DNA from: Escherichia coli
GTDB lineage: Bacteria > Pseudomonadota > Gammaproteobacteria > Enterobacterales > Enterobacteriaceae
Assembly (NCBI RefSeq): GCF_003018255.1
Contig: NZ_CP027440.1
Reading direction: 5' to 3' (one strand)
Length of the DNA: 64,000 nt
Shown here: positions 29,101 through 30,819 of the stretch, piece by piece
How positions within the stretch are numbered: the stretch's first letter is position 1
Layout: every line of letters starts with the position of its first letter
Notes under the pieces: generated by a model
What the model was told of the DNA's origin: nothing
The model's input: the letters and a program-made list of their open reading frames with translations, nothing else
Databases searched by the model: none
Program-made: the position numbers and the translations under genes

Positions 29101-30819
29101 ACTTAAAGAGTAATGCGCCAGGCCGCGTTCAATGAGGATCTCTTTGGTGGTGGTGACGCGATACGCCGCGCCGTCACTGGCGGAGACGGTTAACAAATAG
29201 CGGCTCGGTTTATCGGCGGCGGGGAGATTTAAAGCCACATGACCGCTATCATCGGACACCGTTTCGCTGCCTTCCAGCGACACGGGAAAACGTCCGGCAT
29301 AACGCAAATCGTTACCGACCATTGATAATTGCTGAGCGCGCAAACTTAACTGCACGCGGGCATCTTTTACCGGCTCACCATCCGGGTAAAGCAGTTGCAG
29401 TTTGCCGCTGACCGCTTCGCCAGTTTTGAACTCTTTTTTGTCGAGAGCTAAACCAATCTCGAAATGTGGCTTGATATAGTTGGCTACGCGAAAACTACTG
29501 CTATAGACCTGATTGCGGTAAGCCAGGCGTAACTCATAACCTCCGGCAACGGCATTTTCTGGCAGGCGGAAACTCCCCTGCCCGCCATTGCGCGCATCCA
29601 GCGTGACATTGACGGTTTGCAACAGACTGCCGTTAGCGTCCAGCACCGAAAGCTTCGCCGGGGCGCTGACGATGGGGGATGAATGCAACGGGTCGTGGAA
29701 CTCGCGGCCCATCACTTTGACATCAACACGATCGCCTGCACGATACAGAGGGCGGTCGGTAAAGATATACAAGCGGGTGTTGTAGATTTCGCTTTCGTAG
29801 AAAAAATTCTCGGAGACAAAAACGCCGCCTTCAGCATCTTTACCCAGAATGTATGAACGTTCCGGCGATATATGTTGTAACTGCAAGGTACCGCTGTCAT
29901 CGGTCACACCGCGGGTCATCACGCCAAGACCGTCAGTCCACAAGATCTCTGATCCCGGCTTCGCTTCCCCCTGTTTTTTACCCGCGGTCCACACCAGAAG
30001 CTCGTTACCTGACACTTTGCTAAGCGCCACGGTATCGGAAACAAACACCACCGTCGTCGCCCGATACCCACCTACCATCGCCTCGACGAGGTACAGCCCC
30101 GGCTCTTGCTTGCCTAGCGGAATATAGATGTTGCCCGGCTGCGGCGAGATGAAATTGCTGGATGCGCCTTCCAGTTTTACCCCTTGCTGCGGCTCGACCG
30201 GTTTAGCCTGCCATAATGGGTAACGGAACTGTTCCACCAGGGGATATTTTTTCAGCGGTGAAAACTGGTTGTTCTGTACATAACGGGAAGGTTTAATAAT
30301 GGCATTACCGAGCTGTAATTCGGGTAACGCCTGAGTCACATTCTGCCGAGACTGAGAAGAAAAAGTACGCTGCATCACGCGGCGAGATTTGCCGTACCAG
30401 TTATCCCACAGCCAGGTCAGCGTATTGTTCAGCCCGTCGCCCAAATATTGCGGTTGCACCACAATGCGATGCAGGTTTTTCTGCTGGCGCAAAAATGCCA
30501 TCGGGTCAGGAATACGATACAGGCGAACGTCCACGCCGCCGTACTCTTCCATCTGATAGCGTCGATAATCACGCCCCGGCGCTTCCAGTCGCACTTTCGT
30601 CTCTTCACTGCTGCTAAAACTGCTGTCAGCGAGCAAAAAGAATGTTCCCCCGGCGGGCGGCGCATAGTTGCTGGAAGGAAGCGAATCATCAGCATTAGCA
30701 AGCCCTGTTCCCACAAGAGACAGGGACAAGCACGCTGCTATCGCGCCAGAAAATTTAAACGATAAATGCCAATGAAATTGGGATTGGAATCGTTGGGTAT
30801 CCATCGGGTGTCCTTCCAT
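26200..30819 (-). CDS. yfaS: YfaS, intact alpha-2-macroglobulin family protein (no CxEQ thioester motif seen)
   Basis: Single uninterrupted 1539-codon ORF with signal peptide; I could not find a CxEQ thioester motif on reading the translation. Exact start uncertain (ATG at 30819 or 30804). Confidence 0.8.

Follow-up and report, generated by a model that had tools for sequence, protein, structure and literature searches.

The type II bacterial alpha-2-macroglobulins (A2Ms) are made with a signal peptide that has no lipobox (PMC3735191, in part; PMC5764988, in part; both papers are cited here and below for the portions available). MagD of Pseudomonas aeruginosa is a periplasmic member of this class that associates with the inner membrane, and its first 64 residues send mCherry to the cell periphery, where it does not coincide with cytoplasmic GFP (PMC3735191, in part; PMC5764988, in part). 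The MagD signal peptide is reported to be 26 residues long (PMC3735191, in part). The E. coli counterpart of magD is yfaS, and the subject of this study is the junction between yfaS and the preceding gene, yfaT, in a stretch of 64,000 nucleotides (nt) of Escherichia coli DNA (RefSeq assembly GCF_003018255.1, contig NZ_CP027440.1), which is called the window throughout. Here the longest open reading frame (ORF) of yfaS begins upstream of the yfaT stop codon on the same strand, and the two genes appear to overlap by more than 60 base pairs (bp). Palleja et al. found no real case among 715 co-directional overlaps of that length; the longest real one was that of holD and rimI, at 32-56 bp (Palleja et al., 2008; PMC2478687).

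From the sequence and its conservation among relatives, yfaS very probably initiates at ATG 30804, using a Shine-Dalgarno sequence (SD) of its own inside yfaT, so that the n-region of its signal peptide is read out of frame with yfaT before the protein is exported. If initiation takes place at 30804, the 67-nt overlap of the two genes is therefore real. The preliminary description of this locus had placed in-frame ATGs of yfaS at 30819 and 30804 and the stop of yfaT at 30738, with an overlap of 67-82 nt. The ORF list, the sequence and the codon listing bear out these coordinates (82 nt from ATG 30819, 67 nt from ATG 30804; the yfaT stop is TAG 30740-30738), and the signal-peptide stretch named there is present in the yfaS translation.

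The candidate start codons differ in their ability to pair with the anti-SD sequence. The duplex energy is -5.5 kcal/mol for ATG 30804, which is the sole candidate having an SD, and +0.7 kcal/mol for ATG 30819, -1.5 kcal/mol for ATA 30741, -1.5 kcal/mol for TTG 30729 and +0.6 kcal/mol for GTG 30714. From 30804 to the hydrophobic core of the signal peptide, the yfaS frame contains no ATG, GTG or TTG codon and a single near-cognate, ATA 30741-30739; TTG 30729 and GTG 30714 both lie inside the hydrophobic core. A non-ATG start downstream, just before the signal peptide, had earlier been put forward as one solution. It is not supported: only ATA 30741 would be available, it is not preceded by an SD, and TTG 30729 and GTG 30714 would truncate the hydrophobic core and lack conservation among other species of Escherichia. 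The idea does have a historical basis, in that ATA sits exactly where 65 of 81 related loci carry an ATG. The preliminary description had proposed a search for a ribosome-binding site and start codon just upstream of the hydrophobic core; such a site exists at ATG 30804, and not at the three nearer codons. Public records follow two models. RefSeq and the Prokaryotic Genome Annotation Pipeline (PGAP) start yfaS at GTG 30714 (position 6587 of L001 and L002), 24 nt past the yfaT stop, and this model of 1504 amino acids is used in every E. coli record inspected. GenBank entries of 1534 amino acids in the cluster formed at 90% identity begin at the ATG equivalent to 30804, and no form of 1539 amino acids occurs among the 15 members of that cluster that were listed.

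The junction was compared across relatives by scanning one genome per species, which gave 80 loci, or 81 counting the window. They come from Escherichia spp., Superficieibacter, Entomohabitans, Enterobacillus, Serratia, Edaphovirga, Aeromonas and about 70 Pseudomonas. When homologues were sought with the 101-residue N-terminus, all that came back were fragments and frameshifted calls, and these seeded the scan without being taken as evidence on N-termini. The ATG embedded in the upstream gene at the position of 30804 is present at all 81 loci, in frame with the A2M gene, and from there the stretch up to the end of the stop codon measures 67 nt at 78 loci and 64 nt at the remaining 3. None of the 81 loci has a stop codon in the A2M frame between the embedded ATG and the junction, while stops occur in 4 to 51 of the 81 when other 63-nt blocks of the gene are read in this phase. 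The ATG equivalent to 30819 is found at 74 loci, where ACA or AAA precedes TGG; the other 7 have AAC or ACC. Comparison of orthologues, which had been proposed as a check on the yfaS N-terminus, finds the ATG of 30804 conserved throughout and that of 30819 in part. GTG 30714 is replaced by GCG in L005 and L006, and TTG 30729 by CTG in L003 to L006. Both ends of the overlapping pair are conserved, since the C-terminus of YfaT belongs to its family profile and the embedded ATG, its SD and the open frame are kept at 81 of 81 loci. In YfaT, the Pfam model PF06672 (DUF1175/MagC) spans residues 20-205 of 207, and the C-terminus is therefore real family sequence and not an extension. The preliminary description had also considered that the two genes might be translationally coupled through a long overlap. 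The overlap appears genuine, and independent, SD-led initiation inside yfaT is likelier than coupling.

Most relatives carry another start codon at the junction itself. In 65 of the 81 loci the TGA of the DUF1175 gene overlaps an ATG of the A2M gene (ATGA), and this ATG is followed by a typical n-region (MKKLLRH..., MNALRG..., MTGARMLR...) and then by the h-region. The junction ATGs have no SD; their mean duplex energy over the 81 loci is -0.40 kcal/mol. A stop/start junction without an SD is the usual picture for coupling by termination and reinitiation. The junction ATG is missing in 16 loci: the codon is ATA in Escherichia and Superficieibacter, CTA in Entomohabitans, CTG in 6 loci, GTG in 1 and GTA in 1. 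At L008, L016, L026 and L045 no canonical start occurs at the junction or within the next 13 codons. Because the ATA of E. coli stands at the codon where relatives have the junction ATG, it is probably a relic of the ancestral start. Superficieibacter (ISRQPFSRLCLPLL...) has nine codons after the junction that are missing in Escherichia, among them those of two n-region arginines.

The embedded start lies in a nearly invariant core of about 40 nt, in which most third-codon positions of yfaT are more than 90% conserved among 68 distinct sequences. The embedded ATG demands that an arginine of the upstream protein be encoded by CGA, and CGA is found at 81 of 81 loci against about 3% expected from the codon usage of the same loci; two other arginine positions (Arg at 81 and 80 of the 81 loci) use CGC or CGT almost exclusively. 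ACA is used at 68 of the 69 loci that have threonine (about 2% expected), ATA at 74 of 81 (about 2% expected), CAA at 81 of 81 (21% expected) and CCC at 80 of 81 (16% expected). The SD duplex at the embedded ATG has a mean energy of -5.45 kcal/mol and is never weaker than -3.3 kcal/mol across the loci. When 900 nt were scanned by folding in 50-nt segments, the weakest structure was centred on the embedded SD and ATG (-4.6 to -5.3 kcal/mol), compared with about -6 to -20 kcal/mol elsewhere. To judge from sequence, the rare fixed codons, the SD and the low structure are what one expects of a translation initiation region lying within a coding sequence.

A programmed -1 frameshift from YfaT into YfaS was also considered. 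The heptamer A_AAT_TTT (30756-30750) lies in the zero frame of yfaT, and a -1 shift there would reach the yfaS frame. The candidate was rejected, as the heptamer is absent in L008 (Superficieibacter) and L016, which have the same architecture, and in Serratia and Pseudomonas; it is not kept in Entomohabitans either and probably arose by chance.

The signal peptides of the alternative yfaS precursors were divided into regions by heuristic dissection. The precursor starting at ATG 30804 has an n-region that contains R and K, with a net charge of +1, and an h-region of 18 residues with a mean Kyte-Doolittle hydropathy of 1.68, followed by ANA. Starting at ATA 30741 leaves the n-region empty. GTG 30714 leaves just MGTGLANA (8 residues) ahead of the cleavage site and TTG 30729 leaves 13 residues, while ATG 30819 adds MEGHP and brings the charge of the n-region down to 0. 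The LANA/DDS cleavage site of E. coli aligns with the AxA/[DE][DE] of MagD-type proteins, and all aligned homologues have an N-terminal signal peptide. The residues upstream of GTG 30714 make up the hydrophobic core and persist throughout Escherichia. Because proteins of this family carry a signal peptide and MagD is periplasmic, a start at GTG 30714 is functionally implausible. The signal peptide predicted from 30804 has no conserved lipobox cysteine, as is the case for the MagD/YfaS type. A lipoprotein with an IAA/C lipobox was rejected as a reading: the cysteine is tyrosine in the Escherichia sp. of L004 and absent in other genera, and the hydrophobic stretch before it has only 7 residues. 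With respect to twin-arginine export, the TRR in the extension seen in Pseudomonas lies a long way from the h-region, and E. coli has QR.

Selection on yfaS was estimated from the ratio of nonsynonymous to synonymous substitution rates (dN/dS). Over about 950 codons the ratio is 0.03-0.05 against four other Escherichia species and about 0.07 against Superficieibacter. Purifying selection on the gene is thus strong, and yfaS is, on this evidence, likely to be expressed and functional despite the loss of the junction ATG. Pseudogene decay of yfaS in Escherichia was ruled out by this low ratio and the intact ORF; the stop codon of the K-12 copy is absent from the window and from strain 104. The last 29 codons of yfaT show 0-1 synonymous differences among Escherichia species, against 2-5 expected from the rest of the gene (binomial P = 0.004 for two of the four Escherichia pairs, 0.07 and 0.09 for the other two). 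The same depletion is seen in Serratia pairs (P = 2e-5 to 1.5e-3). Within E. coli, 4926 of 5380 genomes have an identical copy of the 96-nt overlap region, and the figure for the neighbouring 96 nt of yfaT is 4040; these counts are weak evidence, since they depend on the allele of the window strain, and they agree with extra constraint on the overlap. The SD and the ATG are untouched in the E. coli variants sampled.

Several E. coli strains carry changes in the overlap or its surroundings. A C-to-T change at 30745 in L092 and L093 (strain EC6563 and E. coli B) replaces Ala with Val in YfaT and is silent in the yfaS frame (GGC to GGT). In E. coli O111:H8 strain 8B (L095, locus 1-70), everything in yfaT upstream of the core has given way to AT-rich DNA, with the breakpoint 17 nt ahead of GGAAGGA. 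The A2M gene downstream is annotated as intact, which makes this strain a natural construct in which the embedded SD and ATG are kept and the translation of yfaT is gone. In strain 2017-01-4CC (L083, locus 374-674) the IS30-like element ISApl1 interrupts the 3' end of yfaT inside the overlap, some 20 nt short of the stop codon. In strain STECUZB006 (L012/H12, H36) the match ends within yfaT, and a truncated DUF1175 gene is followed by a gene of the TIGR00366 family, which suggests a deletion or rearrangement at the yfaS locus.

More distant DUF1175 proteins, with 47-55% identity, were sampled as well. L084, L087 and L090 served as negative controls: their Arg codon is CGT or CGC, they have no AAGGA motif, and stop codons interrupt the A2M frame upstream. 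L084 and L087 have a plain ATGA start and L090 an ATG 5 nt past the stop. With these conventional starts, the protein motif DTRW of DUF1175 alone does not demand an embedded start. L088 has GGGAGGA, a gap of 6 nt and an ATG at the embedded position, and its junction codon is CTG. The signal peptide there reads MAAHVRQPKLHWIFPLLFSFLLTGFSLLVGGSGALA/HD, with a hydrophobic core that extends across the stop codon of the upstream gene. The core straddles the stop in the same way in L089 (GGAGAG...GTG) and in L085 and L086 (AAGGA...GTG plus an upstream ATG), and for this reason an embedded start would be obligatory at all of these loci. On the metagenomic contigs the gene calls begin after the DUF1175 stop, at 3259 in L085, 2763 in L086 and 2816 in L088, and lose the signal peptide; at L089 the A2M gene is not called at all on that strand.

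The preferred reading, a start at ATG 30804, can be laid out as a sequence of steps. A ribosome would bind the GGAAGGA SD within the Trp-Lys-Asp codons of yfaT and initiate at the ATG made by the yfaT letters cgA-TGg. It would then read 21 codons one base out of phase with yfaT, and after these the hydrophobic core and the ANA/DD cleavage site. The product would be a precursor of 1534 residues with a Sec-type signal peptide of 38 residues, whose positively charged n-region is encoded wholly within yfaT and which would be removed during export to the periplasm. As for its history, we infer that the ATGA junction, which most relatives keep, was ancestral, and that the embedded SD and ATG were gained, in frame with the A2M gene, in a gammaproteobacterial clade of Pseudomonas and Enterobacterales. 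The junction ATG would then have been lost several times, with ATG changing to ATA in Escherichia, where nine codons of the n-region would also have been deleted. With the junction ATG lost and these codons missing, the embedded start would be the only workable one in Escherichia. ATG 30819 may make a minor contribution and low-level reinitiation at ATA is possible; starts at 30804, 30819 and ATA would yield the same mature protein, because the differences between them leave with the signal peptide.

Each of the other candidate starts has points in its favour. Termination at TAG 30740-30738 followed by reinitiation at ATA 30741 would give a signal peptide of 17 residues. The ATA matches the phase and position of the ATG in 65 of the 81 relatives, and the operon is otherwise tightly coupled, with an ATGA overlap of yfaA and yfaT and with yfaS and yfaQ abutting. 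AUA is a near-cognate start that reached about 1-2% of AUG in a first reporter and 0.02-3% in another (bioRxiv 10.1101/063800). We nevertheless consider this start improbable: ATA 30741 has no SD, and the signal peptide would be without an n-region and without positive charge. Entomohabitans has CTA at this position and no other start nearby, and its gene is still intact and conserved. The absence from Escherichia of the nine post-junction codons of Superficieibacter fits a start that had already moved upstream, and in strain 8B the A2M gene is annotated as intact where yfaT upstream of the core is gone. The start at ATG 30819 belongs to the longest ORF and would create an overlap of 82 nt. 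It is the first ATG of the ORF, and the A that creates it is kept in 74 of the 81 loci, as ACA or AAA. This A falls within the core flanking the SD, however, and may be selected for that instead; the ATG has no SD upstream and is missing at 7 loci, the extra MEGHP neutralises the n-region, and the corresponding 1539-residue form is absent among the cluster members listed. We give this start little credence. A start at GTG 30714 or at TTG 30729, with the overlap a mere open alternate frame and no signal peptide, appears very improbable even though it would do away with a long co-directional overlap, a feature that mostly reflects faulty annotation (PMC2478687), though GTG 30714 is the choice of RefSeq and PGAP in all E. 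coli records inspected, and though 1504-residue entries outnumber the others among the cluster members listed. An SD is missing at both codons, and each is replaced in some Escherichia loci. Both would cut the h-region of a protein whose family is exported, as the periplasmic location of MagD (PMC3735191, in part) and the signal peptides of all aligned homologues indicate, and would leave the hydrophobic core that is retained throughout Escherichia upstream of the start.

A different view takes the core to be mainly a regulatory RNA site, bound by CsrA/RsmA or formed by a structured element, with the yfaS of Escherichia poorly translated or decaying. We regard this as scarcely credible, yet several observations lie behind it. 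The core contains ACAUGGAAGG, and this includes CANGGANG, which we take to be the consensus core of RsmA/CsrA sites. Two further GGA motifs occur within 15 nt, including the GGA at 30802-30800. The SD region 30812-30821 (minus strand ACATGGAAGG) contains CAUGGAAG, which is conserved in most of the 81 loci and presumably fits the same consensus, as a candidate site lying on the SD. The yfaS copy of K-12 is a pseudogene. RsmA represses the mag operon of P. aeruginosa, but the documented target is the magA leader and not this core (PMC3735191, in part). No Rfam family matches 30400-31200, and folding of a 121-nt region shows no gain in stability over shuffled sequence (z = +0.47), on which grounds a structured RNA element is rejected; the site is the least structured of the region. 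CsrA-type sites normally overlap a functional SD, and the regulatory idea therefore complements the start at ATG 30804 and does not replace it. Decay is contradicted by the dN/dS of 0.03-0.07 and the intact ORF of 1539 codons.

Some points weigh against a start at ATG 30804. RefSeq curators and PGAP chose GTG 30714, and co-directional overlaps of more than 60 bp are statistically suspect, none of the 715 cases cited above having been judged real (PMC2478687). The n-region from 30804 is unusually long, with 17 residues before the core, and its net charge is only +1. Phylogenetic relatedness among the 81 loci, about 70 of which come from Pseudomonas, means that the counts exaggerate the number of independent observations. 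Species with a self-sufficient ATGA start conserve the core just as strongly, and its conservation alone is therefore no proof of the start used in E. coli; the function selected in the core could partly be something else, such as the binding site of a regulator. The literature search yielded neither start-site profiling nor N-terminal proteomics nor reporter data on yfaS. The start-site profiling and N-terminomics supplements consulted have no entry for yfaS or yfaT, no statement on the start was found in the bacterial literature on yfaS, and NCBIfam has no models for YfaT or YfaS.

The equal conservation of the core with and without ATGA suggests either two starts for one mature protein or an added regulatory role. 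On the first of these, the embedded SD and ATG might be a working start throughout the Pseudomonas and Enterobacterales clade, that of P. aeruginosa magD included, which is a tentative and on balance doubtful proposal. At such loci translation would begin de novo within the upstream gene, at a distance of 63 nt, as well as by reinitiation at the ATGA, and both routes would lead to the same mature protein. As to a regulatory role, CANGGANG on the embedded SD is a candidate site and could be a second, internal point at which CsrA/RsmA controls the stoichiometry of the Mag complex.

The window region is the chromosomal cluster gyrA-yfaA-yfaT-yfaS-yfaQ-yfaP of E. coli, all on the minus strand. The product names in RefSeq are DUF2138 (yfaA), DUF1175 (yfaT), alpha-2-macroglobulin family protein (yfaS), YfaQ and YfaP, and the make-up of a type II operon, yfaA(DUF2138)-yfaT(DUF1175)-A2M-yfaQ-yfaP without pbpC as a neighbour, is thus present downstream of gyrA. 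The Pfam domain MG2 is present within the first 501 residues of the yfaS product, and MG2, A2M_BRD and A2M domains are found at homologous loci. A 1-kb stretch around the overlap has matches in 5388 of 5426 complete E. coli genomes, and that of strain 104 is 99.8% identical. The junction of yfaA and yfaT is an ATGA overlap at 31358-31361, the yfaS stop directly abuts the GTG start of yfaQ with zero gap (26199-26202), and yfaQ and yfaP are 4 nt apart in RefSeq coordinates. The yfaS of MG1655 (L002, locus 6587-11101) has an internal stop and is marked as a pseudogene; those of the window and of strain 104 are intact. The positions of the features are collected in Table 1.

Table 1. Features of the yfaT-yfaS junction, with positions in the window.
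Feature	Position	Strand	Basis or remark
Out-of-frame overlap of the yfaT 3' end and the yfaS 5' end, 67 nt	30738..30804	-	yfaS codons start on the third base of yfaT codons
Proposed yfaS start ATG, formed by cgA TGg (yfaT Arg-Trp codons)	30802..30804	-	SD and conservation
Shine-Dalgarno GGAAGGA in yfaT codons W-K-D, 6-nt spacer to ATG 30804	30811..30817	-	Anti-SD duplex -5.5 kcal/mol
Alternative upstream ATG of the longest ORF, 1539 amino acids	30817..30819	-	Without SD
ATA overlapping TAG (ATAG), probable relic of the ancestral ATGA-junction ATG	30739..30741	-	Position shared with the ATG of relatives
GTG start of the RefSeq/PGAP model of 1504 amino acids, judged incorrect	30712..30714	-	Without SD, within the hydrophobic core
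Near-invariant core of about 40 nt around SD and ATG, CAACTyATGACATGGAAGGACACCCGATGGATACCCgACG	30791..30830	-	68 distinct sequences
Predicted signal peptide of 38 amino acids: 17-residue n-region, 18-residue h-region, ANA, cleaved before DDS	30691..30804	-	Heuristic dissection
yfaS, type II bacterial alpha-2-macroglobulin, MagD homologue, proposed coding sequence of 1534 amino acids	26200..30804	-	Start ATG 30804
Longest yfaS ORF, 1539 amino acids, ATG	26200..30819	-	ORF list
yfaT, DUF1175/MagC family, NlpC/P60-like, 207 amino acids, TAG stop 30740-30738	30738..31361	-	Pfam and RefSeq coordinates
yfaT frame as open reading frame	30738..31388	-	ORF list

The position of the start has consequences for annotation. 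The 1504-residue RefSeq model removes the predicted export signal of a probably periplasmic protein, and similar truncated calls are found in the metagenomic loci L085 and L088. With the truncated model, localisation predictors would assign the protein to the wrong compartment, and a construct cloned from the annotated start would yield a protein that stays in the cytoplasm. A real and conserved co-directional overlap of 67 nt would be an exception to the working rule that overlaps of more than 60 bp are errors (PMC2478687). Its origin may have been cheap, as the overlapped part of the downstream gene is a predicted n-region, where sequence is hardly constrained. Should the embedded start be in use, the synthesis of MagD/YfaS could be set independently of the translation of MagC/YfaT, and this, if true, would bear on the stoichiometry of the Mag complex and on its control by RsmA.

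The closest described system is the magC-magD junction of the P. aeruginosa magABCDEF operon, which is orthologous: a DUF1175/MagC gene is followed by the A2M gene, and a DUF2138 gene lies upstream (PMC3735191, in part; PMC5764988, in part). The signal peptide of MagD and that predicted for YfaS both end in AxA/[DE][DE], and magC contains the same near-invariant core (CAACAACTCATGACATGGAAGGACACCCGATGGAT), in frame with magD. The two differ in that P. aeruginosa keeps the ATGA junction, whereas E. coli has ATA and lacks the nine following codons found in Superficieibacter. At the P. aeruginosa locus (L091, 1420-1560) the reading frame has three ATGs ahead of the hydrophobic core of MagD: an embedded one led by an SD, that of the ATGA junction, and a third 10 codons further on. 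The third has no evident SD and begins the 26-residue signal peptide reported for MagD (PMC3735191, in part), and the published magD start is thus about 31 codons downstream of the embedded ATG. The available portions of PMC3735191 and PMC5764988 contain no mention of an embedded start.

Coupling by ATGA or TGATG was probably the ancestral state of the yfaT-yfaS junction and is still found in 65 of the 81 relatives. Unlike these, E. coli has ATAG, a start half destroyed, and its proposed start is 63 nt upstream and SD-dependent. Embedded SDs and short overlaps are commonplace. The real overlaps of PMC2478687 resemble yfaT-yfaS in lying on the same strand, in being conserved across related genera and in showing nucleotide-level conservation in the shared stretch. 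The yfaT-yfaS overlap differs from them in its 67 nt, above the 60-bp limit, and in that its overlapped part would encode the n-region of a cleaved signal peptide, which tolerates almost any sequence. It also has a surface likeness to error class (i) of Palleja et al., a 5' extension by a mispredicted start, as a start from the longest ORF produces a long overlap and a shorter model exists. It departs from that class in that the shorter models lose a conserved and probably required signal peptide, and in that the SD, the ATG and the open frame are conserved across 81 loci.

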